From contig OZ024746.1 in assembly GCA_964016885.1 (NCBI GenBank), positions 45,074,001-45,138,000 of the forward strand: a stretch of DNA of 64,000 nt, read 5' to 3'. The position numbers and the translations under genes are program-made. Below the pieces are notes generated by a model, which worked only from the letters and a program-made list of their open reading frames with translations, did not search any database and had not been told where the DNA came from. The stretch comes from Eledone cirrhosa (Eukaryota). Positions 16,913 through 52,460 of the stretch are shown piece by piece (within the stretch, counting starts at the first letter, position 1; each line of letters opens with the position of its first letter).

Positions 16913-16985
16913 AATCCCGTCGAGGTTAACTTTGCCTTTCATCCTTACGGGGTCGATAAAATACAGTACAGTAATGTACTGGGTA
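16913..16985 (+). mobile_element. SINE core fragment
   Basis: aatcccgtcgaggttaactttgcctttcatccttacggggtcgataaaat matches the 14.5-kb SINE. Confidence 0.75.
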
Positions 16986-21925: not shown

Positions 21926-22142
21926 GTTGAATGCTATGGTTGACGGAGGCTCGGCTCTGTAAGGTACAGTAATTTTTAACCGCTATAACAATTGTAAATT
22001 GTTTAAAACTTTAACCAAGTTGTAGATAAAAACACCCTCCTCCTCGTGAGATGGGTCTTTCTGCCCGTTATTTGGCCCTTCGGGGTTAAATAACCGCTTA
22101 TTCGGGTTTTGTGCCCAATATTCATTTTAAACCAAAAAAAAC

Positions 22143-24294: not shown

Positions 24295-24362
24295 AACCAT
24301 CCTTCCTCTGCGAGAAGAAGTAAGGTAAGTGGTCTTCACCATCTTTTCCACTCTATTTCAAC

Positions 24363-27740: not shown

Positions 27741-28001
27741 ACTAAAGGTGGAAAACTGGGAGAGGGCACTTGCCTTGGTGGTCAGGGTCATTGTGGCTTT
27801 TTACTGGGCTTTCTCCACAAATGTCCCTCCGAAGTCTCCCCCCTATTGGGGAATTTTTCATTGTTATTTTCATTGTTATTTTTGTTACATCCTCTATTTT
27901 TGTTTTTTTTACACGCAGAAATGCCCATTTGTACCGTCCTGCATTGTCCTGCACTGTCCTTAATGTCTACTTTATGTAAACCCTTGTGGTTAATAAAGAA
28001 A

Positions 28002-28042
<41 letters not shown>

Positions 28043-28259
28043 GTTGAATGCTATGGTTGACGGAGGCTCGGCTCTGTAAGGTACAGTAATTTTTAACCGC
28101 TATAACAATTGTAAATTGTTTAAAACTTTAACCAAGTTGTAGATAAAAACACCCTCCTCCTCGTGAGATGGGTCTTTCTGCCCGTTATTTGGCCCTTCGG
28201 GGTTAAATAACCGCTTATTCGGGTTTTGTGCCCAATATTCATTTTAAACCAAAAAAAAC

Positions 28260-30411
28260 ATGGCTACAAAAAAGAATTTTCACAAGTCACTCCCACTCAT
28301 TCCGTCTTCTTCTTCCTCAATCGTCACTACATCAGAGAGAAGATTGTCTCTCTCCCTCCCTTCTCTAAATGTGTCTCTCTCCCTCGCGTCTCTTTCGCAA
28401 GCGACGCCAGTAAAGAAAAAGAAAAATATAGTTTCTGATAGTTTCCTCGCGCACGTGCAAACCGAGGAACATTTCTCCACGACGACGACAACGACGAATA
28501 ATGTGTGCGGTAAATACGGAAACCCATTTCATTCGTCTGACGTCATGAATAATAGCAGTAGCTGCCGTAATAACAGCAGCAGCAGCAACAGTGACAAGGA
28601 AAACAATAGTAGCAGCCGCAACAGCAGCAGCAGCAGCATAAACAACAACAGCATTAGCAGCAACAACAACAGCAGCAGCAGCAACAACAACAACCACAGC
28701 AACAGCGGTAGCGGCAGTGGTAGTACCAGTAGCAACAACAAAAGTAACAGCAGCTCTGACGACAACAATAACGACAAGAAAGAAAAACCAATCTCGTTTG
28801 CAGGTATCGCAAAGAACCTGGAAACCATCCTTATAACAAATGAGGAATTACAGGAAGCAAAGAAGATGGTGACGAAAACCGGACACCGAGCAAACGCAAG
28901 GCAGCCGAAAAACTTTTCGAACCCAACAGCACTGTACGGTCACGTACCGTACAGTAAGCACAAAATCCCGTAGTGTTGAAAGAGCCAAAGAGGCTCAAAT
29001 ACAAAAAGCCTTAGGGTCTGTGTGGCAGCGGAAAACGCATATCACCCGAGGCAAGAAATATGCCACCGTAGACGTGCTTTTTGCCACACCCCAGGAGGCA
29101 AAGGCTCAATCCTTAGTGACCCTAAGGAGCGAGGAAATGGTGTTGGTGCCCTCCTACTGCGGGAAAAAACTTGTAAGGGTCATACTGACTCCCCGGGTGG
29201 GCCCTTTCTTGTCTGGGCGCGTCTGTCCTCGTCGGAATAGAGGACAAAACAACTGTACTGCAAGTACAGAAAAAGTGAGAGAAGATTGGGTCGGCACCTC
29301 CATTGAGATGTTAATCTAAACCAACCAGGAGTGCTTCGAAGCTATCACGGATGTGATAGACTTCGATAACGGCACTCAACTGCCCATAAGTGTTGAGGGC
29401 AAACGCCCGAAATGCTTTCACTGTGGATCGAAGACTCACCTCAGGGCCCTTTGCAATGAGAAGACCCTGAGAAAGGAGAAAACCCCCCTCCTTCCGAAGC
29501 CGGCTCCACTGCTACCAGCAACAGGACAAGCGGCAATCAGGAACGATAGGTCCGTGGCACCCATACCCACGCCACGGAAATCAAGAACAGCAGCAGCAGT
29601 GGAAGTATTAACAACAACAACAGTAATACCAAATGCAGCTGCAACAGAGACTCCACTGCAAACATCACCAACAACAACAAGTGAAAGAGTGGAGCTGGTA
29701 CCCCTCCCCGACCTCACAGAACCAGACATTGGGTGTGAGGTGGGAGAGGGATGGCAAAAGGTCGCAAGAAGGCACAAACGCAGAAGCAGCACATCGTCGC
29801 CTTCGAAAAGGGAGGAAAGAAAGGAAAAAAGGTTAAAGGTTACTGCAAAGAGACTAAAAGCAGCAACACCACCAACACCATCACCACCATCGCCACCATC
29901 ACTAGCACCACCATCACCACCGGCAACAACCCCACCGCCAACAACAACAACACCGTCAACACCACCACTACAAGCACCAACATCGCAAACACAAAAAAAC
30001 ACACACACCCAGCAACAACGACAAGAAAATAGCAGAACCACACCCCACTCCCAGAAAAACAAATGCACAGCAATAAATATACACAAGAAATTAATGACTT
30101 ACATAATTGAACACACAGATATTTCACAGCACGACTACATAATACCAGCACCAATCAAAACACCAACGAACATAAGACTGGTAAAAATAGCACAGAAACA
30201 ATACACAAACATTAAAACGAAATTCCCCAACGCTGTTGGTGATCTCAGAGACCTAGGAGGGACACTCAACCGGAGGGTATATTCGGATATACTTACAGAA
30301 GTGCCAACGACCAGCCGAAGGGGCGATTCAACAGTCCCTTCACCAGACGACCAGCCGAAGGGGCGATTCAACAGTCCCTTCACCAGACGATCAAGTGAAA
30401 AGGGATGGTGA
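28260..30411 (+). pseudogene. ORF1 of A2
   Basis: Translations identical to A1 ORF1 fragments. Confidence 0.8.
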
Positions 30412-30479
30412 AACCATCCTTCCTCTGCGAGAAGAAGTAAGGTAAGTGGTCTTCACCATCTTTTCCACTCTATTTCAAC

Positions 30480-33400
30480 ATGACCTCACTCAGAATAGGC
30501 AGCATAAATGCGCGTGGCATGGGGTCGTCATGGAAGCAGGGACCCCTGCTCAACGACCTCAGGTCACTAAACATAGATGTAGTGGCCATCAGCGAGACCA
30601 GAATCTTCGAAGCACGGGCCTTCGCACCGATCTTCAGCGGCTACGATGTGTAAGCATCTCCCAGCCGTCCTGGATCGGGGTGAAGGAGTTGCTGCGCTTT
30701 TTCGGAGAGGTTTGGAACTCGCCATACGGGCCATCTTCCTGGACCCAGAAGGTAAGTTGGTGGTGCTGGACGTTACCAGCGGAAACGGGCAAGCTTTCAG
30801 GCTAGTGGCCGTCTATGTCCCGACAGGAGCAGGGCGGCCTGATTTCTTCCGGCGTCTGGAGAACTTTCTTGGAACGTCCCGCTCGTTAGTGTTAGTGGGC
30901 GACTGGAACGGGATCTTAGATGCAAGCTGGGACTGTGTGGGATCAGCGGATAGGGGAGAAGGGTGCAATAGCCTCACCAACCTGCTCAGGCGTTTTGAAC
31001 TGTCTGACAGGTACCGATTGGATTTCCCGGATTTGCCAATGTGGACTTGGACAAATCGCATTGGGTCATCCAGATCATATCTAGATAGAGTATTTTGTAG
31101 GGAAATAGATAGGTCTTGCATAGGCTGTCCACAATTCAAGATAGTCAGCTACACGGACCACAAATTCGTGATCTGTGTGCTTGACTGCTTGACTTAGATA
31201 GGCCTCATAGAGGAGGACCCGGATACTGGAAGCTAAACGGGACCTTACCAGCGCGCAAGGCCTACAAAGAACGGATTAGCGAACTAGTTAAGCGGACGTT
31301 GACGGGGGCCATCGTCAACAAGTGGTGGTTTGCTCTGAAAAGAGCGATTAGAATATAGTCAATTAGGTTTAGTAAGGCTTTAGCAATAGAGAAAAATAGA
31401 GCAGAGGGAGAATTAGTTAGAAAACTAGCCGAGGTGCTTAGCAAAGGCATCGCGACCGACGTACTTGCGGCGAAATTGGCCCTTGACCAATTCTTCAATG
31501 CAAAGCACGAAGGCTGCGTTGTCAAAGCTAGGGTGCGTACTCTCAGACACGAGGGGACGAAAGCCGTTCAATGGGCCACGATCCGGTCTTTGGTGAACCA
31601 CGCCGGGCGCATGCTACTCGATCCCGGGCAAATGTGTGAAGCTTTTTAGCGACATTTCGCACAGCTGTTCGGGGGCAGCGGCGGGCCGGATCGAGGGTTG
31701 GACGTTAGTGTTTACCTAGACGGACTGCCGCGGCTCGGCCACTGAGGCGGAGTGTTGCGAAAGCCGATAACAGCCGCTGAAGTACGGGAGGCAATGACTG
31801 GCTGCACAACGGGTAAATCGCCTGGTTTGGATGGTCTTCCCTATTAACTTTACGTACAGATGCCAGACCTGTTCGGAGGCCTCTTGGCGGACGTCTACTG
31901 CAACTGGCAACAGAACGGGAGAATTCCCAGCTCTGTGAGCCGAGGAGCGGTGGCGCTGCTAAGAAAGGATCCGAACAAGGGGGATAACATAGATAATTTC
32001 AGGCCCATAACTCTGCTAAACACGGCGTTCAAGATTTTGGCCAAGAGGTTGGCGCTTGTCGTTGGTGGTCTGGTGGGAGAGGCGCAGACATGCGCAATTC
32101 CCGACAGATCCATCCACCACAACCTCCACCTCATGCGATACATCGTAGAGAGGATAGCTAGGGAACCTGGCACGGGAGGGTCCTTGATCAATTTAGATCA
32201 GTCGAAAGCTTTCGATAGGGTCGACATCTGCTCTGTGGTGAGAGTGAACGGTCACCTTTCGGAACCGTTCAACATCATGCGCTCGGTCCGCCAAGGATGT
32301 CTCCTCTCGTCCCTCTTGTACGTATTGACTCTCGAGTCATTACTGCACAAACTGGAGTCGGTGAGGGGCGTCCCGCGCGAACTAGGATGTGGAAGATACG
32401 TGTCAGCATATGCGGACGATGTCACCGTAGTGGTGTCGAACGCCAAACACATCGAGGCGATCGGCACTACACTAAGAGAATACGAAGTGGTGACAGAAGC
32501 AATGATCAACCAGGAAAAGTCAGTGGGCCTGCAGCTCGCCCCTGGAGACGCAGGTCCATGCTGTCCAACAGCGTCGTCGGGCGCTGGACGGACGGACCGG
32601 TTAAATTGCTAGGGGTCTGGTTCGGTCCGGACCTCCAGACGGACAAAAACTGGGACGAGGTGACGAGTAGGGTGGCTTCTCTCACCCAGAAATGGGCGGA
32701 GAGGAAGCTATCCCTGAAAGGTCGAGCGGAGGTGGCTAACGCGTACATCGCATCCGTCATCTACTACCGCCTGACCGTCGTACCTTGTCCTAAGCCCGCC
32801 TGACTGCGCTGGAGCGTTTGCTCTTTCGCTTCTTGTGGAAGGGACGCGCTCCGATTGTCAGGCGGTCCATCTGCTGTCAACACCAGCTACGTGGAGGGCT
32901 GGGCATGCCGTGGCTGATGATGCGCAGACACGCGCTCAGGCTACGACATCTCCACCTCTTCCTCGACGGTGATCAGGTGTGGTCGCCGTTTGCTAGACGC
33001 GTTTTTCCCCAGCTCGTCTCCTTGACGGAGCTGCAGTCCTGGGTCAAGCGAAGACCGAGAGGGTGCGCTTGGAGACTGGAATGTCTTCTGGCGCTCACAG
33101 CCCTCGACCAATCGGGCAATGTGATCGGTGGAAACTCCACCTTGGTTTTCTATAGGGGATTAGTGGAGGGGAAGAGCGACGACGTACTTGGAGAAACTCT
33201 AGGCGTCGACGAAAATCAATTAGCCAATCTCTTCGGAAGGACTTTCGGGCCGGGGCCTATGGACAACTTCCAGAAATCCCTGGCCTGGCAGTGCTACCGG
33301 GGAGCTTTGCCAGTTCGGGATAAACTCTACCGGGATAGAGGTGCTGTCAGCCGGGCATGTTCGAGATGCGCACAGGGCGACGAAACCGTCCTGCACGCAC

Positions 33401-33774
33401 TCGTCCAGTGTCCGAGCATTGCTGACTTGTGGGTTTATGTCGAACACCTGCTGTCACGTGTAGGACGGATCCAGCTATCATCTGAGTCCATCGTGAGGAT
33501 TGCCCCGCCCTCTTCCTTTAGCCGGGAAGGGCAGGCAATTTTTATCTGTCTGGTGGCCATGGCGAAAGAGATAGTATAGTGCACACGTTTGAAAGGGCTG
33601 AAGACGAGCACTTACCTCTTCGGTGATGCCCTGATTAACTTTTTCAAATTTCATTTGAAAAGGAAAATCAGGGTAGAGAGGGAAGTGCTCTCTTCCCAGC
33701 ATTTTGTTGAAAGATGGGTGAGAGAAGCAAGTATGGCCCGAATGAATGGGCCTTCTCTGAGTATGTGTCTGTAA
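30480..33774 (+). pseudogene. ORF2 of A2 (APE-RT), multiply disrupted
   Basis: Fragments 30646-31197, 31860-32612, 32818-33579 and 33589-33774; YADD retained. Confidence 0.9.
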
Positions 33775-34053
33775 ATTAAAGGTGGAAAACTGGGAGAGGG
33801 CACTTGCCCTGGTGGTCAGGGTCACTGTGGGCTTTTAATGGGCTTTCTCCACAAATGTCCCTCGGAAGACTCCTCCCTATTGGGGAATTTTTCTTTGTTA
33901 TTTTATTACATCCTCTGTTTTTTTACACGTAGAAATGCCCATTTGTACCATCCTGTATTGTCCTGTACTGTCCTTAATGTCTACTTTATGTAAACCCTTG
34001 TGGTTAATAAAGAATACATTATTATTATTATTATTATTATTATTGTTGTTATT

Positions 34054-36629
34054 CCTTGAATCTCAGTCATTGATGTTGGTTAACTGGAAAGTCCGTTGGA
34101 ATGAATATCAAGCCACTACCTGCAGCCTCAGATATTCAGGACGTATCGGAGGGTTCTTGCTGTTCCAAGCAAGCATGCCTTTTGAAGCGTTCCAAAAAGC
34201 GTGAAGGGGCCGATTTTCTTTAACCATCCCTGGAAACTTTTGGTGATAGTCCCCAGTGCGCCTATGACAATCGGGATCACTTTGACTTCATGGCAGTTCC
34301 AAATCCTTTTCACCTCCCACTTTAGGTCCTGGTATCGGTTAATGTTCTCCCTCTCCTTCTCTTGCACTCTCGTGTCGAAAGGGCAGGCCATATCCACAAT
34401 CAGACACGATCTTTTTTCTTTGTCCACAACCACCAGGTCAGGTCTATTGTGTTCCAGTTTTTTGTCCGTCTGTATCCTAAAATCCCACAGCACCTTCACC
34501 TGATTGTTCTCCATCACCGCCTCTGGCCTATGCTCATACCATTTCTCAGAATGTGGTAAATTGTTTACTTTGCACAGGGGCCGTTGGATCACCCTGCTCA
34601 TCACATCGTGTCTCCAGCCCTTATAGTGGGTCTGGGCTAGGTGTTTACACTCGGACACAATGTGAGCCACAGTCTCCTCTCTCTCTCCACAGATCCTGCA
34701 CAGTGGGCTAGCCTCCTCCTTGTAAATATGGTGCTTCAACCACTTCGTTTTGAGGGCCTGCTCCTGCGCAGCCATTAGCATTCCTTCTGTAGCCATTTTG
34801 AGGTCTCCTCTTCTCAACCAGTTCCATGTCTGTGGATCTCTAAATTCAGTTTTCTCAAAGAAGGTACTATGAAGGGATTTTCCCTTAAGGCTGCTCTTCC
34901 TCCATTGATGTTATTTCCTCCTTGGACTTCCCCTGGCCTACTGTCCCCTCCTTCAGTACAGTTCTGAGCATTGGCTCCTTACTGTAGGTCACGTATTTGT
35001 ATAGGTTGTTTTTCTCCATCTGAACACAGTCCTCTATGCTGATAAGACCTCTTCCACCCTCAGATCTCCTTAGGTAGAGTCTATCGACATCACTCCACTT
35101 GTGGAACATGTTGTAGATAGTCTTCCTATCCATTTCTTTTTGTTCAGCAACATTCCATCTCAGAATTCCCGCACTGTACCTAATAATAGACACAGCTCGG
35201 GAATTTACTGCGCTTATGGCATTTCTGCTGTTCAGATGTGACTTCAATACGCTCCTTACTCTCCGAATGTATTCAGTTCTTAACAATTCCTTCATTTTTT
35301 TATTCTTTATGCCATCAGCCTCCAGAACGCCCAAATACTTGTATCCTTCCTCAGAGTCAATTTCCTTTATCATCTCACCTGTTGGTATCTGGATCCCGTT
35401 ACTTCTGCTCAACCTACCCCTCCTCATCACAATGACTCCACATTTACTAATACCAAACTGCATACATATATCACTGCTGAAAATACGGACAGTGTCAACA
35501 AGCACATCCAACTCCTTCTCACTTTTCCCGAAGAGCTTAAGATCGTCCATGAAGAGGAGGTGATTGATGGTAAGCTCTCCCTTTCCCAACTTGTATCCTG
35601 CTCTCACTTTTCGCAGCTTAATGGTCAAGGGCATCAGGGCAAGGACAAACAACAGAGGGGACAGGCTATCTCCCTGGAAGATACCTCTCTTGATCTTCAC
35701 GCTTCCCAAGGATACTCCAGTTTGATGTCAACTCTGTCTCCCAGGACCCCATACTCCTGCCCAGCAACTGTCTGATGTTATCTGCCACCCTGAAGATCTC
35801 CAGGCTTTTGGTGATCCAAGAATTAGGCACCATGTCAAATGCCTTTCTGTAGTCTATCCATCCCATGGCAAGATCAGTGTGTCTCCTCCTGCAATTCCCC
35901 ATTACCATCCTATCAATAAGTAACTGGTCCTTTGTACCACGTGACTTCTTTCGGCATCCTTTCTGTTCGTCCGGTAACAAGTTGTTTGTGTGGAGGTGAT
36001 GGTAGATTTCCTCAGACACAATGCTCGTCAACAAGTTTCCACATTACGGACAGACATGTGATAGGTCTATAGTTGGTAACATCATTACCCTTGATTCGGT
36101 ATTTCATTATCAGAACCGTGGTACCTTTTGTCAACCACTCTGGCACCTCACCCGACACCAAGCAGTCATTGAACATGGCCGTCAGCTTCGGGTGGAGGGA
36201 TGTTAAATTTTTAATCCAATACCCCTGCACACCATCTGGGCCTGGTGATTTCCAGTTGGTTAGTTTTTTGGCCTGCCCCTTAAGAGTTTCAACTGTGATA
36301 CTCAAACAGTTTGTTGGTGTGCCTGCTCACCGATCTCCCTCTGTACTGTCTCAATCCACCCTGCCTGGACATTATGTCTAACATCCTGCTCCCATATTCC
36401 TCTCCAGAATGTTTTAGTTTGCTCCGCCCCAGGGATCAAGTCGTTGCCTCTTTCTTTCCCCTCAAGCTGTCCAAACAGCATCTTCTGGTTGTTGTCGAAC
36501 ATGCGGTTCTGTTTATACTGACTGACTCTGTTCTCGTATCCCCTGATTTTTGCACTCTTTGCTACAATGCGTTGCTTCAGTTCGTCTATGATAATATTTA
36601 GCTTTTTCCTCCTAGTTTTGTACTTTATT
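34054..36629 (-). mobile_element. R4/Dong-like RLE non-LTR element D1, 5'-truncated
   Basis: [61 protein letters not shown] (restriction-like endonuclease); sense-strand (TAA)n tail. Confidence 0.9.
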
Positions 36630-36861
36630 ATTATTATTATTATTATTATTATTGGCGACCTACGTAGTAAATCGTATCATTGTGAGCTCCGCAAAGGTTT
36701 GTTATTTCCGTTTGTTAAAAATTGTCATTTATGGAAAATGTTATTGTTAACTGTTTATAAGCGCACATACATTGTTTTCCGAAAAGGACACCCAAAAAGA
36801 TTGGGGCCTTGTGCCCAAAATTTAAACTTTTATTATTATCAAAAAAATTTCTTTGAAAAAA

Positions 36862-38820
36862 ATGGCTAATTCACCTCTGCACGAAGCAGCTGAAAGCCTT
36901 CCTCACAAATTAACACCTCACACCGACACCACCATTGTAAATGTTACTACGTTTGCCAACACAAAAAAAATATAAGCACTAGCAATATTTTAAATTTGTC
37001 TCAGGCAGACATTCATTTCCCGCCATTACCAATGACTGCAGGTGTTAAAGCCTCCACCACCACCACCACCACCGCGACAACAGAAACAAAAGAAGAAAAA
37101 AATAAATTAACTCGTGATGTCGAAATGAAATTAAGCAAAATGGACTCTTCCCCACCAAAGACGACTGACGTCACCACCACCACAACTGAAACTAAAATTA
37201 ATATTAACGATAGCAACAACAACAACAATGACATTATAAAAACCCCCCTCAGTTTCCCCAGAGTAGCAAAACAGTTCGAAGCATTTACGGTAACTCAGGA
37301 GGATTTAGAAAATGCCAAACAAATGGTAAAGAAAGATGGGTACAGGGTCATTCCCCCCCCCCACACACCTAATAAAATGGAGCATCGGCGCCTATGCACC
37401 GTGTCGTATAGAACAATAAATGTAAAATCGCGCCGAGTGGAACGGGCATCCGAGTCCCAAATCCAAAAAGCTTTGGGACATGTGTGGGCAAGAAAAACCC
37501 ACATCTGACGTGGGCAAAAGTATGGAACCGTGGACGTATTCTTTGAAACACCACAGGAGGCTAGAGAACACTCCATGGCCCCATTAAGAAGTGACGACTT
37601 CACACTCGTCCCAAGCTATTGTGGCCAGAGACTCGTAAAGATCAGGGTGACCCACGTTCCACCGGCCATCGAAATTCCCTGGCTAATAGCGGCTGTCCTA
37701 GCCGGCATCGAAGCCAACACGAAAATAATAGCAATAGCAAAAGAAAAGCAGGAGAACTGGTCCGGATCTGGGATGGAGCTCCTGATCCAAGCGGACCAAA
37801 AAAGCATTGAGGAGGTCCCAGAGGTAATAGACCTCACTGACGGCAGCCACCTCACGGTAATTGTCGAGGGAAAAAGACCTAGGTGTGTCGTTTGTGGTGA
37901 AGGAACCCACCTAAGGGCTTTCTGCCCTCAGGCTAAAAGGTTGAGGCCACCACTCCTACCCACCCCAGTGACACAACCATCAACACCACCAGTAGCAGAG
38001 ATGGCAGCAACAACTGTAGCAGCAACAACAGAAGCAACTATAACAGCAACAACCCCAGCAACAGTAGCAAAACCAACACCACCACCACCACCAGCAAAAC
38101 CAACACCACCACCTCCCAACGCTTCAGAACTAGCACCAGTGCCTACACCATCCACCACGCCACAAGCAAAACTAACGCCTGTGAAGGATTTTCCAGTCCC
38201 CGGCCTATCACAACTGGAGACAGATTGTGACGACGAGGAGTGGGAAACGATATCCGGAAAAAAAAAGAAACCAAAAAAGAAAAAATTCTCTTCCTTCCCC
38301 CTCCAAAAACAAAATACAGAGGGAAACAAATAAATTAAGAAACAAAAAAGTTAGGACAGATATACCACCATCCACACCAGCATCACCAACCCCATCAACC
38401 CAAACACCAACACCATCACCATCATTAACCCCAACACCACCATCACCTACACCACAAAAGTCACCAAAATGCGAAACAGAAACAATCCCACAACAAACGC
38501 AAACAAAACAAAACAACCAAAACGATACACACTACACAGCATTAAATTTGAACAACAAGCAATTATTACACTACATCCAACACAACACCAGCATCACAGA
38601 AAGAGACTACACAACAACCCCAAAATTGACACCACCTCCACACATACAAATCACTCGCATCACACAGAAAACGTACATGACACTAAAACAAAAATTCCCC
38701 AAAGTCATCGGAGACTTCCGACAAGCACTCTCCAGGAGGATTTATAAGGACATCCTTCCTGAGGAGGCCACAAGCAGTGAAAAGGATGGAAAAACCGTCC
38801 TTCCCCTACGAGAAGTAAGG
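36862..38820 (+). pseudogene. ORF1 of B, broken
   Basis: Fragments 36996-37508, 37530-38333 and 38227 onward; homologous to but clearly diverged from A ORF1. Confidence 0.75.
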
Positions 38821-38857
38821 CAAGTGGTCTTTCCCATCTTTTCCACTCCTTTTCAAC

Positions 38858-41800
38858 ATGACCTCACTCAGAATAGGCAGCATAAATGCGCGTGGCTTGG
38901 GGTCGTCATGGAAGCAGGGCCACCTGCTCAACGACCTCAGGTCACTAAACATAGATGTAGTGGCCATCAGCGAGACCAGAATCTTCGAAGCACAGGCTTT
39001 CGCACCGAACTTTGGCGGCTACGATGTGTACGCATCTCCCAGCCGTCCGGGATCGGGGGGAGGAGTTGCTGTGCTTTTTCGTAGAGGTTTGGATTTTGCC
39101 ATACGGGCCATCTTCCTGGACCCAGAAGGTAAGTTGGTGTTGCTGGACGTGACCAGCGGAGACGGCCAAGCTTTCAGGTTAGTGGCCGTCTATGCCCCGA
39201 CAGGAGCAGGGCGGCCTGATTTCTTCCGGCGTCTGGAGAACTTTCTTGGAACTTGGCTCGTTAGTGTTAGTGGGCTACTGGAACGGGATCTTAGATGCAC
39301 GCTGGGATTGTGTGGGATTAGTGGATAGGGAAGGAAGGTGCAAGAGTCTCACCAACCTGCTCAGACGTTTTGAACTGTCTGACAGGTACCGAATGGATTT
39401 CCCGAATGTACCAATGTGGACTTGGACAAACCGCATAGGGTCATCCAGATCATATCTAGATAGAGTATTTTGTAGGGAAATAGATAGGTCTAGCATAGGC
39501 TGTCCACAATTCAAGATAGTCAGCTACACGGACCACAAATTCGTGATCTGTGTGCTTGACTTAGATAGGCTTCATAGACGAGGACCCGGCTACTGGAAGC
39601 TAAACGCGTCCTTACCAGCGCGCAAGGCCTACAGAGACCGAATTAGCGAACTAGTTAAGCGGGCGTTCACGGGGGCCATCATCAACCACAAGTGGTGGTT
39701 TGCTCTGAAAAGAGCAATTAGAATAGAGTCCATTAGGTTTAGTAAGACTTTAGCAATAGAGAAAAATAGAGCAGAGGGAGAATTAGTTAGAAAATTAGAT
39801 GAGGCGCTTAGCAAAGGCATCGCGACCGACGTACTTGCGGCGATATTGGCCCTTGACCAATTCTTCAATGCAAAGCACGAAGGCTGCGTTGTCAGAGCTA
39901 GCATGCGTGCTCTCAGACACGAGGGGACGAAAGCCGTTCAATGGGCCCGAGTGGCGGAGGCGCGTCGTGGCAACAAAGCCACGATCCGGTCTTTGGTGGA
40001 CCACGACGGGCGCATGCTACTCGATCCCGGGCAAATGTGTGAAGCTTTTCAGCGACACTTCGCTCAACTGTTCGGGGGCAGTGGCGGGCCGGATCGAGGG
40101 ATGGACTTTAGTGTCTACCTCGACGGACTGCTGCGGCTTTCGGCCACTGAGGCGGAGTGTTGCGAAAAGCCGATAACAAACGCTGAAGTACGGGAGGCAA
40201 TGACTAGTTGCACAAGGGGTAAATCGCCTGGTTTGGATGGTCTGCCCTATGAACTTTACGTACAAATGCCAAACTTGTTCGGAGGCCTCTTGGCGGACGT
40301 CTACTGCAACTGGCAACAGAACGGGAGAATTCCCAGCTCTGTGAGCCGAGGAGCAGTGGCGCTGCTGAGAAAGGATCCGAACAAGGGGGATAACATAGAT
40401 AATGTTAGGCCCATAACTCTGCTAAACACAGAGTTCAAGATTTCGGCCAAGGTGCTAGCAAAGAGGTTGGCGCTTGTCGTTGGTGGTCTGGTGGGAGAGG
40501 CGCAGACATGCGCTATTCCCGACAGATCCATCCACGACAACCTCCACCTCATGCGATACATCGTAGAGAGGGTAGCTAGGGAACCTGGCACGGGTGGGTC
40601 TTTGATCAATTTAGATCAGTCGAAAGCCTTCGATAGGTACGACCATCGTTACCTAGCGGCAGTCCTGAGGGCGGCTGGCTTTGGGCCCGTCTTCAGAGGC
40701 TGGATCGCTGCCATGCACAGCGACATCTGCTCTGTAGTGAGAGTGAACGGTCACCTTTCGGAACCGTTCAACATCATGCGCTCGGTCCGCCAAGGATGTT
40801 CCCTCTCGTCCCTATTGTACGTATTGACTCTCGAGCCATTACTGCACAAACTGGAGACATTGAGGGGGGTCCCGCGCGAACTTGGATGCGGAAGATCCGT
40901 GTCGGCATATGCCGACGATGTCACCTTAGTGGTGTCGAACGCCAAACACATCGAGGCGATCGGCACTACACTAAGAGAATACGAAGTGGTGACAGAAGCA
41001 ATGATCAACCAGGAAAAGTCAGTGGGCCTGTAGCTCGCCCCTGGAGACGCAGGTCCATGCTGTCCAACAGCGTCGTCGGGCGCTGGACGGACGGACCGGT
41101 TAAATTGCTAGGGGTCTGGTTCGGTCCGGACCTCCAGACGGACAAAAACTGGGACGAGGTGACGAGCAGGGTGGCTTCTCTCACCCAGAAATGGGCCGAG
41201 AGAAAGCTATCTCTGAAAGGTCGAGCGGAGGTGGCTAACGCGTACATCGCGTCCGTCATCTACTACCGCCTGACCGTCGTACCTTGTTCTAAGCCCCGCC
41301 TGACTGCGCTGGAGCGCTTGCTCTTTCGCTTCTTGTGGAAGGGACGCGCTCCGATGGTCAGGCGGTCCATCTGCTGTCAACACCCGCTACGTGGAGGGCT
41401 GGACATGCCGTGGCTGATGATGCGCAGATACGCGCTCAGGCTACGACATCTCCACCTCTTCCTCGACGGTGATCAGGTGTGGTCGCTGTTTGCTAGACAC
41501 GTTTTTCCCCAGCTCGTCTCCTTGACGGAGCTGCAGTCCTGGGTCAAGCGAAGACCGAGAGGGAGCGCTTGGAGACTGGAATGTCTTCAGGCGCTCACAG
41601 CCCTCGACCAATCGGGCAATGTGATCGGTGGAAACTCCACCTTAGCGTTCTATAGGGGATTAGTGGAGGGGAAGAGCGACGACGTACTTGGAGAAACTCT
41701 AGGCGTCGAAGAAAATCAAGTAGCCAATCTCTTCGGAAGGACTTTCGGGCCGGGGCCTATGGACAACTTCCAGAAATCCCTGGCCTGGCAGTGCTACCGG

Positions 41801-42274
41801 GGTGCTTTGCCAGTTCGGGATAATCTTTACAGGCATGGAGGTGCCGTCAGCCGGGCATGTCCGAGATGCGCACAGGGCAACGAAACCGTCCTGCACGCAC
41901 TCGTCCAGTGTCCGAGCATTGCTGACTTGTGGGTTTATGTCGAACACCTGCTGTCACGTGTAGGACGGATCCGGCTATCAGCTGAGTCCATCGTGCGTAT
42001 TGCCCCGCCCCCTTCCTTTAGCCGGGAAGGGCAGGCAGTTTTTATCTGTCTGGAGGCCATGGCGAAAGAGATAGTATGGTGGACACGTTTGAAAGGGCTG
42101 AAGACGAGCACATACCTCTTCGGTGATGCCCTGATTAACTTTTTCAAATTTCATTTGAAAAGGAAAATCAGGGTAGAGAGGGAAGTGCTCTCTTCCCAGC
42201 ATTTTGTTGAAAGATGGGTGAGAGAAGCAAGTATGGCCCGAATGAATGGGCCTTCTCTGAGTATGTGTCTGTAA
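38858..42274 (+). pseudogene. ORF2 of B (APE-RT) with frameshifts near 39255 and 41035
   Basis: ORFs 38858-39328, 39192-41033 and 40796-42274 together give a complete APE-RT-ZnF protein. Confidence 0.92.
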
Positions 42275-42554
42275 ATTAAAGGTGGAAAACTGGGAGAGGG
42301 CACTTGCCCTTGTGGTCAGGGCCACTGTGGTCTTTTAATGGGCTTTCTCCACAAATGTCCCTCGGAAGTCTCCCCACTATTGGGGAATTTTTCTTTGTTA
42401 TTTTATTACATCCTCTGTTTTTTTTACACGCAGAAATGCCCATTTGTACCATCCTGTATTGTCCTGTACTCTCCTTAATGTCTACTTTATGTAAACCCTT
42501 GTGGTTAATAAAGAAAACATTATTATTATTATTATTATTATTATTGTTGTTATT

Positions 42555-45500
42555 CCTTGAATCTCAGTCATTGATGTTGGTTAACTGGAAAGTCCGTTGG
42601 ATTGAATATCAAGCCACTACCTGCAGCCTCAGATAATCAGGACGTATCGGAGGGTTCTTGCTGTTCCAAGCAAGCATGCCTTTTGAAGCGTTCAAAAAAG
42701 CGTGAAGGGGCCGATTTTCTTTAACCATCCCTGGAAACTTTTGGAGATAGTCCCCAGTGCGCCTATGACAATCGGGATCACTTTGACTTCATGGCAGTTC
42801 CAAATCCTTTTCACCTCTCACTTTAGGTCCTGGTATCGGTTAATGTTCTCCCTCTCCTTCTCTTGCACTCTCGTGTCGAACGGGCAGGCCACATCCACAA
42901 TCAGACACGATCTTTTTTCTTTGTCCACAACCATCAGGTCAGGTCTATTGTGTTCCAGTTTTTTGTCCGTCTGTATCCTAAAATCCCACAGCACCTTCAC
43001 CTGATTGTTCTCCATCACCGCCTCTGGCCTATGCTCATACCATTACTCAGAATGTGGTAAATTGTTTACTTTGCACAGGTGCCAGTGGATCACCCTGCCT
43101 ATCACATCGTGTCTCCAGCCCTTATAGTGGGTCTGGGCTAGGTGTTTACACTCGGACACAATGTGAGCCACAGTCTCCTCTCTCTCTCCACAGATCCTGC
43201 ACAGTGGGCTAGCCTCCTCCTTGTAGATATGGTGCTTCAACCACTTCGTTTTGAGGGCCTGCTCCTGCGCAGCCATTAGCATACCTTCTGTAGCCTTTTT
43301 GAGGTCTCCTCTTCTCAACCAGTTCCATGTCTGTGGATCTCTAAATTCAGTTTTCTCAAAGAAGGTACTATGAAGGGATTTTCCCTTAAGGCTGCTCTTC
43401 CTCCTTGATGTTATTTCCTCCTTGGACATCCCCTGGCCTACTGTCCCCTCCTTCAGTACAGTTCTGAGCATTGGCTCCTTACTGTAGGTCACGTATTTGT
43501 ATAGGCTGTTTTTCTCCATCTGAACACAGTCCTCTATGCTGATAAGACCTCTTCCACCCTCAGATCTCCTTAGGTAGAGTCTATCGACATCACTCCTCTT
43601 GTGGAACATGTTGTAGATAGTCAATAGCTTCCTAGTCTTCCTATCCATTTCTTTTTGTTCAGCAACATTCCATCTCAGAATTCCCGCACTGTACCTAATA
43701 ATAGACACGGCTCGGGAATTTACTGCGCTTATGGCATTTCTGCTGTTCAGATGTGACTTCAATACGCTCCTTACTCTCCGAATGTATTCAGTTCTTAACA
43801 ATTCCTTCATTTTTTTGTTCTTTATGCCATCAGCCTCCAGAACGCCCAAATACTTGTATCCTTCCTCAGAGTAAATTTCCTTTATCATCTCACCTGTTGG
43901 TATCTGGATCCCGTTACTTCTGCTCAACCTACCCCTCTTCATCACAATGACTCCACATTTACCAATACCAAACTGCATACATATATCACTGCTGAAAATA
44001 CGGACAGTGTCAACAAGCACATCCAACTCCTTCTCACTTTTCCCGAAGAGCTTAAGATCGTCCATGAAGAGGAGGTGATTGATGGTAAGCTCTCCCCTTC
44101 CCAACTTGTATGCTGCTCTCACTTTTCGCAGCATAATGGTCAAGGGCATCAGGGCAAGGACAAACAACAGAGGCGACAGGCTATCTCCCTGGAAGATACC
44201 TCTCTTGATCTTCACGCTTCCCAAGGATACTCCAGTTGATGTCAACTCTGTCTCCCAGGACCCCATACTCCTGCCTAGCAACTGTCTGATGTTATCTGCC
44301 ACCCTGAAGATCTCCAGGCTTTTGGTGATCCAGGAATGAGGCACCATGTCAAATGCCTTTCTGTAGTCTATCCATCCCATGGCAAGATCAGTGTGTCTCC
44401 TCCTGCAATTCCCCATTACCATCTTATCAATAAGTAACTGGTCCTTTGTATCACGTGACTTCTTTCGGCATCCTTTCTGTTCGTCCGGTAACAAGTTGTT
44501 TGTGTGGAGGTGATGGTAGATTTCCTCAGACACAATGCTCGTCAACAGTTTCCACATTACGGACAGACATGTGATAGGTCTATAGTTGGTAACATCATTA
44601 CCCTTGATTCGGTCTTTCATTATCAGAACTGTGGTACCTTTTGTCAACCACTCTGGCACCTCACCCGACACCAAGCAGTCATTGAACATGGCCGTCAACT
44701 TCGGGTGGAGGGATGTTAAATGTTTAATCCAATACCCCTACACACCATCTGGGCCTGGTGATTTCCAGTTGGTTAGTTTTTTGGCCTGCCCCTTAATAGT
44801 TTCAACTGTGATACTCAAATCAGTTTGTTGCTGTGCCTGCTCACCGATCTCCCTCTGTACTGTCTCAATCCACCCTGCCTGGGCATTGTGTCTAACATCC
44901 TGCTCCCATATTCCTCTCCAGAATGTTTTAGTTTGCTCCGCCCCAGGGATCAAGTCGTTGCCTCTTTCTTTCCCCTCAAGCTGTCCAAACAGCATCTTCT
45001 GGTTGTTGTCGAACATGCGGTTCTGTTTATACTGACTGACTCTGTTCTCGTATCGCCTGATTTTTGCACTCTTTGCTACAATGCGTTGCTTCAGTTCCTC
45101 TATGATAATATTTAGCTTTTTCCTCCTAGTTTTGTATTTTATTTCCAGCCTATTTTTAGTGCCTATGTTTTTTAGTGTCCCATTCAGTAGTGACTCAAGC
45201 TTTCCTATGTCATTTCTCATTTCCCCGATTTGCCCACTCAGTCGCTTCTTCCACCACGGCTCTGCTCTTTCTTGTCTGTTGTTTCCTCTCGCTTTCATAC
45301 CAAGTAGTTTCCTCACCGTATTTGCTGTTGCTTTGAGGATATTGTTGCACTGGTGAAGGCTCCTCGCCTCAAGGTATGGGATGACTTTGTTTACTTTAGC
45401 TGTTGTTTCTTTTAACTTTTTCCTGTCTACAAATCTTAGGTTCATAGGTCTCCCACTATCATTGTTCAATTCATCTACCACTAAATTTAGGATGTCAACC

Positions 45501-47060
45501 GAATCTTGTCCTAGCCCGTCAGCATTCATCTCCTCAGTGGCCGTATCTCTGTTCCAGGTATTATTTATCTCAGTATTCAGATCATTGTCTGCTTCGGGTG
45601 GTTCCTCCGTTCTCAGGACCTCTTCACCTTCATTTCCCACTGGCTCGCTTGTCTGGCATTCTACACCCGCCATCTCCAAGCCATTCTCTCTGCTCAGTTC
45701 CTCCAGTTCCAGCTCGCTTATCCATCCATTAGTTCTTATTACCCGAGCCTGCCCGGCCAATTTTTGTTCATCTAATTTAAATAAACCAATCTCGTTCCAG
45801 ATGTTATGCATCCGTCTCCTGTAGCCCCTCTCCTTGGGGTTACTTTTCAGGTAACATTGCATAACAGTTCTATTCAATTCTTTCGTCCAGTTGGTTCTGG
45901 CCCCTTTCCTTCTTCTCCTTCCTCCAACATCAGCAGTATTTGGTTGACAGTCAGGTTCCTGCTGCTGAGCCAGGGGGTACCTGTTGGGTGAGAGTCTGTC
46001 ACATGACGTTCTAGTCTCCATTTCATCGTTATTCGAACTGTTTATGTTCGATATTTAAACACTCTTATCGAGGATTGGCGAATGTATGGTTACATATCCA
46101 TCTGTGGATCCGCCAGTCCACTTGGCCCTTGTGTGGCATTATCACCACGCTGTATACGAACACACAGGCAGAAAGGGCCCCAAAGATGAATAAGCATAAG
46201 TTTCATTGTAATGTAGTGTTCGAATGTCTGACTTAGTTTTTGTTTTTTAAGTTTTAGTTTTTCCCCCCTCTTCTCTGTCCGTCCGCCTGCTTCTCTCTTC
46301 ATTCTTATTTTCTTTACGTTTTTGGGTTTTTTTTTTTTTTTTTGTTTTTGTTTTTCTCTGTTTGTTTTTCTCGTTTTTTGCTGTTGTTGCTGTGCTGCTT
46401 TAGTTTTGTTGTTTGTTTTTTCTTTTTTCTTTTGAGTCTATCTATATATTTTGATGCCTTCCTCTTTTTTAGCAGTAGGGATTCTATAATGTGGTGGCAG
46501 CAGCCAGCTAGAGGAAATGGGAGACTGGCGGCGGTAGCGATACTGAGACAGTGGTGGTGGTGATGTCGATACCGAGGCAGTGGTGGCGGTGATGTGACCG
46601 TATTACTGTAGTGATGGTGCTGTAGCGGTGGTAGCAGTGAAGGAGTGAAGGAGTGGTGGCGGCAGTGATGGGATAATGGTTGTAATGATGGCCGTAGTGA
46701 GCGGTGGTGGTTTAGTGTACACAGGTGATGGGGTGGGTGGTGTATCTAGTTTCTGGTGTTGGTGAGTTTGGCTGTTCTATATAGTGTAGACAGAGGAGGA
46801 GGGGGGGGGGGGGTTCTTCTTCCATTTATAGCCATTTTCTTTTTTGGATATACAGTGTACAATACAAAGTTGAATATTTGAATATTTGAGCCTTATAACA
46901 ATATATTTTGGGTCCGAATTTTTTGGGGCTCAAGCCGGGTGCTTTACGTAGCATTTGTACTAAGAGTTGTTATTTCACAAATGATTTAAATATGTTAAAA
47001 ATTCAAAACTTACGGGAGCGATTTCATGACCTCCGTCACCTCGTGCGTCTTCTTCCCTAT
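42555..47060 (-). mobile_element. Full-length R4/Dong-like RLE element D2
   Basis: Single reading frame 46021-42629, ~1 kb 5' region, short 3'UTR, (TAA)n on both sides. Confidence 0.9.
42629..46021 (-). pseudogene. D2 ORF (~1130 codons): Myb-like N-terminus, RT, CCHC and RLE; three in-frame stops
   Basis: ORFs 44738-46021, 43043-44698 and 42818-43018 share one frame; the stops match CAG, AAA and TGG codons in D1. Confidence 0.9.
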
Positions 47061-47064: not shown

Positions 47065-47130
<66 letters not shown>

Positions 47131-47131: not shown

Positions 47132-50100
47132 GTTGCATTTATCTTGCTTTATGTTCATACAAGTTATCACCAAGTCACAACCAGTGACCTCAAGAGACAA
47201 CAAGGTCCGCCATGTTCAAGAAAGAACACACATACACACACATGCATCTTTAGGTGTTTAGACTTGTGATGTACTTATATTGACAGAATCTTCCTTAGTA
47301 TATGGGCAGTTCCCATTAGTACTATCTTTTGTATTTCTCATATAGCTGGGTTTCCTGTGATTTGCGATAAGTAATCATTAGACCCCTTAGGTATCATTCC
47401 TAGAGCGCTTACAACCACTGGTATTGTTTTAGTTCTCAATTTCCACATTTTTCCAATTTCTATCTCCAGGTGTTTTATAGATACATTCTTGTCTATTGGA
47501 ACGGATATATCAATTAGCAGGCGTACTCTCTTTTTAAAGTCCTTCAGTATTATATCAGGTCCATTTGCATCTATTTTTCGGACTGTTTGGATGCTAAAGT
47601 TCCACAAGATTTAAATGTGATCTTTTTCAAGACTGGGGTCCAAAAATCAGCTAATGTTTCAAATCTTCCCATTACTTCGGGGCTGGAGACCTCCCATAAC
47701 CGGAATACTCCTACTGTTGGCCCTCCATGCTCACCACCAACAAATCAAAAGAAAAAGAGAGAAAAATGGTCAAGGGAAGACAATAAAGAAGTTATTGAGG
47801 CTTTCTACACTGCCATGTACTACCCATCAAATAGATCGAATACGGAACAGACATATATCAACTAGAAAAAGAAACATCCCGAAAACAGAGGCTATATTGA
47901 CAGTAACAAATTAGCCAATATGCGAAGAAATATTGTTATAAAAAAGTTACTAACTGATATAGAAAATGATCAGATCAAGCTATTAGCACAAAGTCAGCGA
48001 AGGGAAAATGAAACATGTGTCAGTGAAAACGAGGTAAATTGTAACACTTCGAATCCCAGGGTTGGGGCGGAATCACTGACAACAGAACAAATTTAAGAAA
48101 GGATCGAAAAAGTGGAGGGAGTGCATACTAAAGATGAAACTCAAAATGAAAACAATGAGATCGCAAATGATAAAGAAATGAATGAGAATGAACTTGCCAA
48201 CTTGAAGGATGCTTGAAGGATGAAATTATGATCGAATGGATGAAAATGAAAGAATCTGACATGGGAGAACGAGACACTGTCCCTAAGATCCAGAACTCCA
48301 AACAGAACTAAAAGATAATACACAAGAATCACATTATTCTCAAAAACATTATCATCACAAACAAACTAAACATTACTGATTTAAATCATCTCTATTATGC
48401 ATCGGCTAAAGTTGCCACTCACTTATGTGGAGGGAAAATGAAAAACAAAGGAATCCCCACAAGAAATCTACTTGGCAAGAGAACATCAATCGCCAAATAA
48501 ACCTTCTCCGGTCTGACATAGAAATTTTAACAAACTACAAAGTAGGAGAACATGTTAAACAAACTAAATTTAGAAAATTGAAAAGAAAATACAGTATAAA
48601 ATCAACAAGTGACATAGACATGCTGATAGAAATAATCAGGCAAAAATTTTCGGCCAAAGCTGCTCGTATAAGGCGCTTTGAAAAACGATCTAGATTCTAT
48701 AAGGACAATAATTGTTTCTATTTTAGGCACAAGGCCAGCAATTACCCATTACATTACTGGTACTTTATTTTATCGACCCTGTAAGGATGAAAGGCAAAGT
48801 TAACCTCGGCGGGATTTGAACTCAGTTCATAAAGGGGCGTAACTCTATGCTTCAAAGCATGGTGTCCGACTCTCTACCGATACTGTCAATCAAGAAACTT
48901 CTACAGAAAAATTGGCAAGTCATCAATAACTGCTAAATCAATACCACCCAAGGAGGAAGTGCAAGAATTCTGGGAAAAGATCTGGACCGAAGAAAATGTT
49001 CATAATATACATGCCCCATGGATAGACAGACAAATGAAAGATACGGCTCACCTTGAGGAACAAATATGGTAAAATATAACAGTTGAACAGTGGCGTTTGG
49101 CTCTTAGAAAAACCAGCAAATGGAAATCCCCAGGAAAAGACAAAATACAAAGTTTTTGGATAAATGCTTTCACAGAGTCTCATGAGCTGTTAGCCCAACT
49201 TTACAATGAAATAGTTAAGGAGCCAGAAAAGATACCATCATGGCGAGTTAACGGCATTACATTCCCGCTTCCGGAGAATGATGAAACAAACAATCCCAAA
49301 AATTACAAACCGATAACTTGCTTGACCACAATGTATAAAATTTTAATATCAGTCCTAACTGAATATACATATGACCACCTGATAACAAATGATCTATTTC
49401 CCAATGAGCAGAAAGGGTGTAAACGAGGCTCATATGGCTGTAAGGATCTGCTTTTGGTTAACAAAATGATACTGTTGTTGGTGAAGGGGGGAGCCAGCAG
49501 TGCCATAGTCGTCTATTTATATCTTTTGCTAGCCTCTCCCTTGTCTAGTGATACAGCCACCTTGCCCTTTCTTAAGTTACCAGAAGGTAGTGTGGGAATA
49601 GCGGTGGTAGCAATGAAGAAGTGGTGGCGGCGGTGATGGGATAGTGGTAGCAATGATGGAGTGGTGGCGGCAGTGACTATAGCGATAGCGTTGTCGTTAC
49701 TGAGTTTTGTTGAATAGACTGTAGTAGTATGCGTTTGTTTGATCTGTGTATCTATGTGGTTTGTCGCGTATGTTTAATAAATGTGTTGACATATTTCCTT
49801 AATATTTGAATTAAATATTTTGAGAAAACTTGAGATACAATAATAGTAATTATTATTATTATGCTGGGATTGGTGGTGGTGGTGGTGAAATTGCCGTTAT
49901 CTGGCTGTTGATTTAGTGTACACTGAGGGGTGATGTGATAGGTGGTGTATCTAGTTTGTGGTGTTGGTAAAATTGCTGTTATTTTGCTGTTCTATATAGT
50001 GTAGACAGAGAGGGTTTTCTTCCATTTATAACCATTTTCTTTTTTGAATATGAAATTTATAATACAAAATTGAATATTTGAGCGATATAACAGGATATTG

Positions 50101-50250
50101 TGGATCCGAATTTCCTGAGAGCTAAGCCTGGCGCTTTATGCCCCATTTGTACTACGAATTGTTATATCACAATTGTGTTAAATATGTTAAAAATCAAAAA
50201 CTTACACGAGCGATGCCATAACACTCTATCCACCGCGTGCGTCTACTTCA
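47131..50250 (-). mobile_element. Divergent R4/Dong-like element D3 with an inverted, partly deleted interior
   Basis: 3' end 47131-47611 on - (WNFSIQT..GPDII..DISVP..ALG); N-terminus to RT start on + 47612-49474 (KWSRED, KSPGKD, YKPITCL, EQKGC); 5' region 49475-50250 on -, similar to D2 46600-47060. Confidence 0.75.
48717..48891 (-). mobile_element. tRNA-derived SINE nested in D3
   Basis: Same family as 14461-14682, with A and B boxes; interrupts the D3 frame. Confidence 0.85.
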
Positions 50251-50302
50251 TCTTCTTCTTCTTCTTGTCATTATTATTATAATTGTTATTATTATTATTG
50301 TT

Positions 50303-51561
50303 CTTTGAGTCTCAGTCATTGATGTTAGTTAACTGGAAAGTTTGTTGAAATGAATATCAAGCCACTACCTGCAGCCTCAGATATTCAGGACGTATCGGAG
50401 GGTTCTTGCTGTTCCTAGCAAGCATGCCTTTTGAAGTGTTCCAAAAAGCGGGTCGGGGTCAATTTTCTTTAACCATCCCTGGAAACCTTTTGAGATAGTA
50501 CCTAGTGCGCCTATGACAATCGAGACCACTTTGACTTCATGGCAGTTCCAATTCCTTTTTACCTCCCACTTTAAGTCCTGGTATCGGTTAATTTTCTCCC
50601 TCTCCTTCTCTTGCACTCTCGTGTCGAATGGGCAGGGCATATCCACAATCGGGCACGATCTTTTTTCCTTGTCCAAAACCACCAGGTCAGGTCTATTGTG
50701 TTCCAGTTTCTTGTCCGTCTGTATCCTAAAATGCCATAGCACCTTCACCTGATCGTTTTCTATCAACGCCTCTGGCTCATGCTCATACCACTTCTCAGAA
50801 TGTGGTAAATTGTTTACTTTGCATAGGTGCCAGTGGATCACCCTGCCCATCACATCATGTCTCCAGCCCTATAGTGAGTCTGGGCTAGGTGTTTACACTC
50901 GGATACAATGTGAGCCACAGTCTCCTCTCTCTCTCTCCACAGATCCTGCACAGTGGGCTAGCCTCCTCCTTGTAAATGTGGTGTTTCAACCACTTCGTTT
51001 TGAGGACCTGCTCCTGCGCAGCCATTAACATTCCTTCTGTAGCCTTTTTAAGGTCTCCTCTTTTCAACCAGTTCCATGTCTGTGGATCTCTAAATTCAGT
51101 TTTCTTAAAGAAGGTACTATGAAGGGATTTTTCCTGAAGGCTGCTCTTTCTCCTTGATGTTATTTCCTCCTTGGACATCCCCTGGCCTATTGTCCCCTCC
51201 TTCAGTACAGTTCTGAGCATTGGCTCCTTACTGTAGGTCACGTATTTGTGTAGGTTGTTTTTTTCCATCTGAACACAGTCCTCTATGCTGATAAGACCTC
51301 TTCCACCCTCAGATCTCCTTAAGTAGAGTCTATCGACACCACTCCTCTTGTGGAACCTATTGTAGATAGTCAATAGCTTCCTAGTCTTCCTATCCATTTC
51401 TTTTTGTTCAGCAACATTCCATCTCAGAATTCCCGCACTGTACCTAATAATAGATACAGCTCGGGAATTTACTGCACTTATGGCATTCCTACGGTTCAGA
51501 TGTGACTTTAATACGCTCCTTACTCTCCAAAGGTATTCAGTTCTTATCAATTCCTTCATTT
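50303..51561 (-). mobile_element. R4/Dong-like element D4, 5'-truncated (same family as D1/D2)
   Basis: ORFs 50885-51559 and 50377-50853 are near-identical to the D2 C-terminus; TTA on both sides. Confidence 0.9.
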
Positions 51562-51600: not shown

Positions 51601-52460
51601 ATTTATCATCGGACTGGGAAGGTGTGTTCTTGTGAGCTCCGTCAGTTAAATTTCAAGTTTTTAAATTAAATTAATTGTTGTACTTTTTGTGTGGCAATGG
51701 GTCATAAGACATCCGTCTTTGCCTGGTATAAAGAACACCCCGTAATATTTGGTCCTTGAGCCCTGATATTCAAACTTTGCTTTAAAATATCTTTTTCGAA
51801 AACGAAAAACATGGTGGAGCCACCCCGCCACCAAACTTTGAGTCTGCTGTCGTGAGACAGTAGTGCAGGTGGAGGCATTGGGATAAGTAACACCGTCCCC
51901 AACAAAATGTTAGGCAATATTGTCAACAACAAAAACAACAGCATCAAAACCAACAAACAAATGACAGACGAAAAAAAACAATGGTAACAAAAACAACAAC
52001 GAAATTAGCAACACCATCAACAGCATGACTAACGGCAGCAGCAACAACAAGATAGAAACAACTCAAGTAAACAATGACAACAACAACATCACTAACAACA
52101 TTGTGACCAGCAACACGGACAATAACAAGAAATCTTTGCTGCTGCAGCAGCCAAAAAGAGGTCATGCTTTAGCATGGACCTTACCTAAAAAGAGAAAACT
52201 TTGGCACAGGCATGGAAACGCATTAAACAATAGCAAATCTGGACCAACTTAACCGTCCCTGCAGATGCCATAGAAGTGATGGAGAGAAGAATAGTGTTCT
52301 TTAGATGTATTTCAGTGGAGGCTGAAGCTGCGGCCATCACTCTCCAGGCAGAAATCGAAGCTGCGCTGAGGTGCATCAGAGCTGACACCTAATACAGAGC
52401 CAGGGGCAGATAATACGACACCATCTCGTTACTGTTTGAGAAACCCTCGCTGTGAAACAT
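51601..52460 (+). mobile_element. 5' fragment of a third Tx1-like family (C): leader and decayed ORF1
   Basis: Leader motifs shared with B (ttgtgagctccg, acaccc, ccttg-gccc); 52253-52455 translates ..ERRIVFFRCISV..EIEAALR..ARGR*YDTISLLFEKP, aligning with B ..QIQKALG..RGQKYGTVDVFFETP. Confidence 0.7.

Follow-up and report, generated by a model that had tools for sequence, protein, structure and literature searches.

The window analyzed here, a stretch of 64,000 nucleotides from the 3.0-Gb assembly of Eledone cirrhosa, raises the question of whether non-LTR retrotransposons with different endonucleases, restriction-like (RLE) in one group and of the APE type in the other, share one 5' leader, and, if so, how they came to share it. 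Between 20.9 and 52.5 kb, the window is a nest of such elements in (TAA)n arrays. On its plus strand lie two-ORF, L1-like elements that we take to be Tx1-like: A (21926..28003, with a leader at 21926-22142, ORF1, and ORF2 from 24363), a tandem second copy of A (28043..34017, leader 28043-28259), B (36654..42518, leader 36654-36861), and C (51601..52460), the 5' remnant of an older Tx1-like family that retains the leader and the start of ORF1. The minus strand carries elements with a single ORF, in which RT and CCHC are accompanied by a restriction-like endonuclease motif. One of them, belonging to RLE family F1, begins with the leader D2 (46836..47058), 5' of which is a (TAA)22 target array (47065..47130), and continues through a spacer (46055..46835), in which the frame of the leader ATG lasts 29 codons before giving way to A/C-rich low complexity, into a single ORF (42629..46054) that encodes RT, CCHC, and a PD-xxx-D restriction-like endonuclease motif and is broken by stops in this copy. 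Another, of RLE family F2, begins with the leader D3 (50036..50250), followed by a spacer, body, and 3' end (47140..50035). Two 5'-truncated pieces lie on the same strand, an F1 copy (34054..36624) and, immediately 5' of D3, a 3' fragment of F1 type (50290..51559).

Several other features of the window deserve mention. In the F2 copy, positions 47630-49507 are inverted relative to other copies, with a deletion, and the 5' end is normally oriented, unlike in simple twin priming. A SINE-like repeat of ~190 nt occurs at 48699-48891, 14527-14700, and 16913-17025, as well as at many loci elsewhere; it ends in (ATT)n, its tail looks like that of the Tx1-like elements at their 3' end, and it inserts into the same arrays as the Tx1-like and RLE elements, even within RLE spacers. 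At 5828-7386, on the minus strand, two open frames whose sequence is RT-like and, C-terminally, nuclease-like presumably represent a Penelope-like remnant, and 62834-63444 is a tandem repeat with ~6.6 copies of a 70-bp unit.

The D2 and D3 leaders are the true 5' ends of RLE families F1 and F2. Indeed, all 30 D2 loci continued into an F1 body, all 19 D3 loci outside the window continued into an F2 body, and 12 of the 13 extended loci carrying D4, a leader found in L071, continued into the body of a third RLE family, F1b. Leader and body are joined at dozens of loci on many contigs, with 95-99% identity and RLE-type (TAA)n 5' flanks. The RLE families are young and abundant (95-99% identity); for the F1 ORF start, a first look gave 1372 candidates. 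Conversely, among 30 loci picked by the F1 ORF start, five of which also belong to the D2-picked set, 20 had a full D2 leader, 2 had a partial one, and 8 were truncated below the leader, and none had another leader ahead of the ORF; the possibility raised by the earlier note that other Dong copies might lack the leader was thus not borne out. Tx1-like bodies followed 12/12 A, 12/12 B, and 24/25 H leaders, and also 15/15 C-type leaders (11 by protein match and 4 by DNA match). No solo leader was found among the loci examined, each search being represented by its best 40 candidates. Of note, L092 and L093 are F1 copies in which the leader and early spacer are duplicated in tandem.

The two kinds of bodies differ in class. 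F1 has one long RT ORF, with 1141 stop-free codons in copy L124 (RVT_1 E 1.9e-23), and, being 4.5 kb long with an intact frame in that copy, it is not a non-autonomous element of the SIDE type, which is short and lacks an ORF. In a PDB comparison, the best solved relatives of F1 were R2 proteins (E 4e-30) over L1 (2e-13), whereas those of the Tx-type ORF2 were L1 ORF2p (1e-28) over R2 (4e-18). The translations of F1 and F2 display in their C-terminal parts what we take to be a CCHC motif and a PD-(D/E)xK-type endonuclease motif, and no APE match lies between leader and ORF in either family. The Tx1-like ORF2 contains Exo_endo_phos (APE), RVT_1, and zf-RVT domains, in the ORF1 plus ORF2 layout of the L1 group. 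The (TAA)n arrays at the 5' and 3' ends of RLE copies are an insertion context of the R4/Dong type, and the (ATT)n 5' flanks of A, B, C, and H copies correspond to the target specificity for a repeat described for the Tx1 clade (PMC4640811). The RT tree contains database proteins, essentially unnamed, and no named R4/Dong or Tx1 reference; we use Dong-like and Tx1-like as provisional labels drawn from architecture and target.

The earlier note had proposed that the leaders of A, B, C, D2, and D3 form one module, and its placement of the five is confirmed: each is preceded by a (TAA/ATT)n array and ends in an A-run, with an ATG following at 22143 (A), 36862 (B), 51811 (C), 46835 (D2, minus strand), and 50035 (D3, minus strand). 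Pairwise global alignments were compared with 400 dinucleotide shuffles. The RLE pair D2-D3 gave a z of 24, and similarity exceeded the shuffles in all cross-clade pairs, with z values of 7.0 for C-D3, 5.0 for C-D2, 4.6 for A-D3, 4.3 for A-D2, 3.6 for B-D2, and 3.4 for B-D3; among the Tx1-like leaders, B-C reached 7.3, A-C reached 3.0, and A-B, the weakest pair, only 2.0. An nhmmer profile built exclusively from 17 natural Tx1-like leaders recognized all 46 D2/D3 leaders extracted from 50 loci (the ATG motif was not found in the other 4) at 10.5-30.6 bits, the matches covering mainly profile positions ~35 to 150-210. It also recognized all 20 D4 leaders, which scored 28.4-46.6 bits with E values from 1e-12 to 5e-7 for a search space of 0.96 Mb, and this makes D4 the clearest cross-clade link among the RLE leaders. 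The 66/66 RLE leaders therefore score 10.5-46.6 bits, compared with maxima of 6.8 for 600 shuffles, -0.1 for 316 genomic windows, and -2.1 for reversed or complemented leaders, and the leaders of RLE family F5 and Tx1-like family G fell below 0 despite having the same layout. Reciprocally, an RLE-only profile detected 12/12 C-type leaders at 7.9-26.8 bits and gave -1.0 to 4.8 bits on A and B, with a shuffle maximum of 4.4, so that A and B are, by these sequence scores, the weakest partners in the homology.

Cross-clade identity amounts to 48-58% in AT-rich sequence, over a collinear match of ~170 nt, and among the Tx1 families compared, from the best 40 candidates per search, none has a leader more than ~58% identical to a D leader. 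Altogether, these comparisons indicate that the leader is very probably homologous, by shared ancestry, across the RLE and Tx1-like clades. The recurring motifs listed in the earlier note were matched partly out of register: TTGAGCCC of D2 aligns to a part of C other than that which holds TTGAGCCC in C, and TGACGGAGG is common to A and D2 only. Likewise, the layout of ~210 nt, an A-run, ATGG, and low complexity is present but generic, as it also occurs in the F5 and G leaders. An inverted repeat near the 3' end of the leader (22068-22095 in A) is strong in the A, C, and H leaders but degenerate in those of the RLE families.

Among the RLE families, the history of the leader differs from that of the body. 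The F1b body is 85-88% identical to F1 at the nucleotide level in most copies, whereas its D4 leader is closer to the F2 leader (77-80%) than to the F1 leader (71-75%). F1 and F2 share 46% of amino acids in the RT and 34% in the C terminus, yet ~410 nt of their 5' ends have a nucleotide identity of 75%. The RT tree places F2 as the sister of F5 (99/98) and F1 and F1b in a group with database proteins; the leader tree disagrees with this tree for the RLE families. Furthermore, the F1 spacer is a mosaic, its first 125 nt resembling F2 and its last ~230 nt resembling F1b. Since an F1-type body stands behind an F2-like leader in F1b, leaders seem to have passed from one RLE lineage to another. F5 likewise targets (TAA)n, but its leader is a different, stacked one, which is unrelated to the D leader and recalls monomeric L1 promoters. 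This 5' end (L223:2690-3701 on the minus strand; also L224, L225, and L207) consists of ~330 nt, followed by two paralogous ~200-nt monomers with an internal (ATT)n that has been struck repeatedly by SINEs, and then by a low-complexity stretch. Genome-wide matches of an F5-leader profile were discarded because a SINE-bearing row contaminated the profile, and the F5 leader evidence used here consists only of how F5 leaders score with the other profiles.

The frame that follows the leader ATG bears on the direction of transfer. In Tx1-like copies this frame runs for 47-519 codons (A) and 37-523 codons (B), compared with 18-40 codons in D2, 14-27 in D3, and 14-71 in D4, and low-complexity Thr/Ser/Asn/Pro coding, which the earlier note had read after the ATG of all five leaders, has no intact frame in the RLE families. 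Over the 600 nt after the ATG, indels of 3n length account for 26/50 in A and 21/46 in B versus 28/121 in D2 and 24/87 in D3, a modest excess; low-complexity codon repeats favor 3n indels in any case. The RLE spacer shares an A/C-rich makeup with Tx1 ORF1 starts, with DNA matches restricted to low complexity, and a translated comparison of spacer and ORF1 gave no protein-level match. We consider that the leader ATG and spacer of the RLE families are likely a dead ORF1 start. In the leader tree, which is unrooted, comprises 221 columns, and has a weak root branch (57/77), all RLE leaders fall into a single shallow group (99/97), in which D2 nests within D3, and the A, B, C, C64, C65, H, and I leaders form a deeper Tx1 radiation; identity between rows is 46-78% for the more diverse Tx1 leaders versus 73-79% for the RLE leaders. 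A capture from Tx1-like elements by RLE elements is favored because long ORF1 frames occur only in Tx1-like copies and because Tx1 leaders are more diverse.

Building on what is observed directly (the homology of the leaders, their linkage to each body, the mismatch between leader and RT trees, and the loss of frame after the ATG), we regard it as probable that a Tx1-like leader was captured once by RLE elements, together with the ORF1 start, that it was then passed between the F1/F1b and F2 lineages, and that it would serve these families as an internal Pol II promoter. The swap of a promoter and ORF1 start advanced by the earlier note is thus retained as far as leader ancestry is concerned, but the ORF1 start is nonfunctional in the RLE families, and no homology between their spacer and ORF1 was found at the protein level. 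Similarly, the two clades do meet in shared arrays, as that note had supposed, but Tx1-like and RLE elements face opposite ways in 83 of the 85 adjacencies (loci overlap and the counts are not independent), and this orientation leaves simple tandem insertion unable to explain a Tx1 5' end before an RLE body, so that an extra step is needed. Such a step could be a template jump of the RT onto Tx1 5' RNA, template jumps in vivo having been shown for R2 (PMC3414825), or a sense insertion of an RLE element into an (AAT/AAC)n stretch inside a Tx1 ORF1, after which a read-through transcript would have been copied. Only one clean case of a same-strand fusion between a Tx1-like 3' end and an RLE sequence was found (L222), indicating that joints between the two can form, although it involves the 3' end and not the leader. 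At this site (L222:4945-6024), the Tx1-like 3' end reads in the same direction as the C-terminal F1b fragment to which it is joined, and the junction shows short microhomology but lacks an array.

The leader-bearing copies have fixed 5' starts, which bear only indirectly on where transcription would begin. A captured promoter would free the RLE families from the route of cotranscription and 5' HDV-like ribozyme processing. No Rfam match to a ribozyme was obtained at E≤5 on L004, L022, L036, and L043, and a homemade scan, run without a positive control, detected no L3-like motif of an HDV-like ribozyme. On six loci, Rfam returned only microsatellite-driven miRNA matches below gathering scores and nothing on the leaders; NCBIfam and tRNA scans yielded nothing relevant. 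In folding comparisons, only the hairpin of A was more stable than shuffles (z -2.8), B, C, D2, and D3 not being so, and the GC-rich segments that precede the ORFs of F1 and F2 were no more stable than shuffles either; a ribozyme/IRES reading was therefore dropped. It is quite possible, if somewhat short of probable, that RLE and L1/Tx1 elements draw on a common pool of exchangeable 5' promoters, that Dong-like lineages abandoned the ribozyme route when they captured a Tx1 promoter with its ORF1 start, that this promoter was passed even among RLE lineages whose proteins are only ~40% alike, and that its splice site may strip the dead ORF1.

Whether the captured leader was instead selected in the RLE families for a role at the RNA level, rather than for transcription initiation, can be weighed on the same splice-like signals. 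The leaders of A, C, H, D2, D3, and D4 have, at corresponding alignment positions near +45, a GT(A/G)AG motif that is among the best kept; in D2 it reads GTAAGT (47008..47013, minus strand), which we take to resemble the splice donor consensus. An acceptor-like signal, a U-rich tract plus YAG, is retained ahead of the ORF in F1 as well as in F1b (46150..46154, minus strand, in the F1 spacer). The geometry suits a putative 871-nt intron (47013 to 46150) that spans 8 of the 12 upstream ATGs and whose removal might be the selected function, or else U1 bound at the 5' splice site might protect the transcript. Four ATGs remain past the acceptor, B lacks the motif at that position, no fold is conserved, and spliced genomic copies were absent from both a pattern search of the assembly (0 matches) and the F1 ORF-start loci (0/30). 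We consider such a role decidedly unlikely as a replacement for the promoter, although the two could coexist. Convergence, by which unrelated leaders would have evolved the same ordered host-factor sites, draws on the low cross-clade identity in AT-rich sequence, on the failure of the RLE-only profile to recognize A and B, and on the GTAAGT near +50 of the unrelated F5 leader; it is very improbable in view of a collinear match that reaches 46.6 bits, of the negative scores of the F5 and G leaders, and of the D4 and H leaders, which already partly bridge the C/H and D leaders.

The transfer might also have run the other way, from an RLE lineage, or both clades might have taken the leader independently from elsewhere, for instance from a promoter of the host. 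The lack of a root in the leader tree and of a close Tx1 donor, together with a spacer that has no ORF1 protein match, leaves room for these scenarios, but they appear unlikely given that the Tx1 leaders are the more diverse ones, that the ATG is productive in Tx1-like copies only, that F5, the sister of F2, lacks the leader, and that the loci examined contain no solo leader. The last observation also leaves without support the independent module capping both clades that had been offered in the earlier note. Finally, in so dense a nest of insertions, D2 and D3 could be thought to be remnants of neighboring Tx1 insertions lying outside the RLE elements, a view that the linkage of D2 to F1 in both directions refutes and to which we give next to no credence. 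Capture of the leader from a Tx1-like element is the reading that we retain as probable.

The Tx1-like families show 5' changes of their own. A and B are 92% identical over ORF2 and the 3' part, while their leaders and ORF1 barely align, which looks like the same process as the recruitment of 5' UTRs in mammalian L1. Many C-type copies (L052-L065) are internally deleted, with the leader joined to ORF2 or to 3' pieces, and are possibly non-autonomous derivatives. A second donor-like motif, GTAAG or GCAAG, followed by a pyrimidine tract, stands just before the ORF2 ATG (24310-24330 and 38815-38830 in the window; L126 and L128) and occurs in several Tx1-like families.

In mammalian L1, a young 3' body can gain the 5' end of another family, with 11 such replacements described in the mouse (PMC3600994, PMC5381506). 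That exchange stays within L1, whereas the leader described here is common to the APE (L1/Tx1) and RLE groups. Elements of the L1Tc/ingi type that bear the Pr77 module reportedly form one related group, so that Pr77 also remains among relatives, in contrast to a leader that spans endonuclease classes. In trypanosomatids, Pr77 is a single 5' promoter module present in several element families of a genome (PMC4748587). Closer in kind are the R2/R1 hybrid SIDEs of Drosophila, in which a 5' module crosses between RLE and APE elements that share a target locus, by template jump or non-homologous recombination as proposed (PMC3414825). These hybrids, however, are short, non-autonomous elements in which the RLE part, a ribozyme, is joined to an APE 3' end (PMC3414825), whereas here full-length RLE elements (1141-codon frame in L124) have an APE-type leader, the opposite direction, and with it a likely promoter. 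Dong of Bombyx mori and R4 resemble F1, F1b, and F2 in their single ORF, RT, C-terminal RLE, and (TAA)n context, but they release their RNA with a self-cleaving 5' HDV-like ribozyme, in the case of R4 in Ascaris (PMC3774820), whereas F1, F1b, and F2 start with ~1 kb of Tx1-like leader and spacer, in which our scans detected no ribozyme. The octopus repeat papers list Dong-R4 and/or L1-Tx1 families, without a shared leader in the sections that treat them (PMC13282606, PMC8967140, PMC9115989). In the open literature we found no full-length RLE family with an L1/Tx1-type leader; Repbase/Dfam and supplements may hold consensus sequences. What appears to be new is a leader shared across clades in full-length RLE elements, recruitment within L1 and non-autonomous R2/R1 hybrids being known.

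The transcription of RLE elements outside the rDNA is poorly understood, as has been noted for non-LTR elements (PMC3774820), and F1, F1b, and F2 offer a testable case of RLE elements with a likely internal promoter. Together, our results indicate that the exchange of 5' ends can cross the deepest split among LINEs, which bears on host silencing, where one promoter type would serve two clades, on the classification of repeats by their 5' ends, and on gene writing with RLE elements, for which such leaders would be natural designs.
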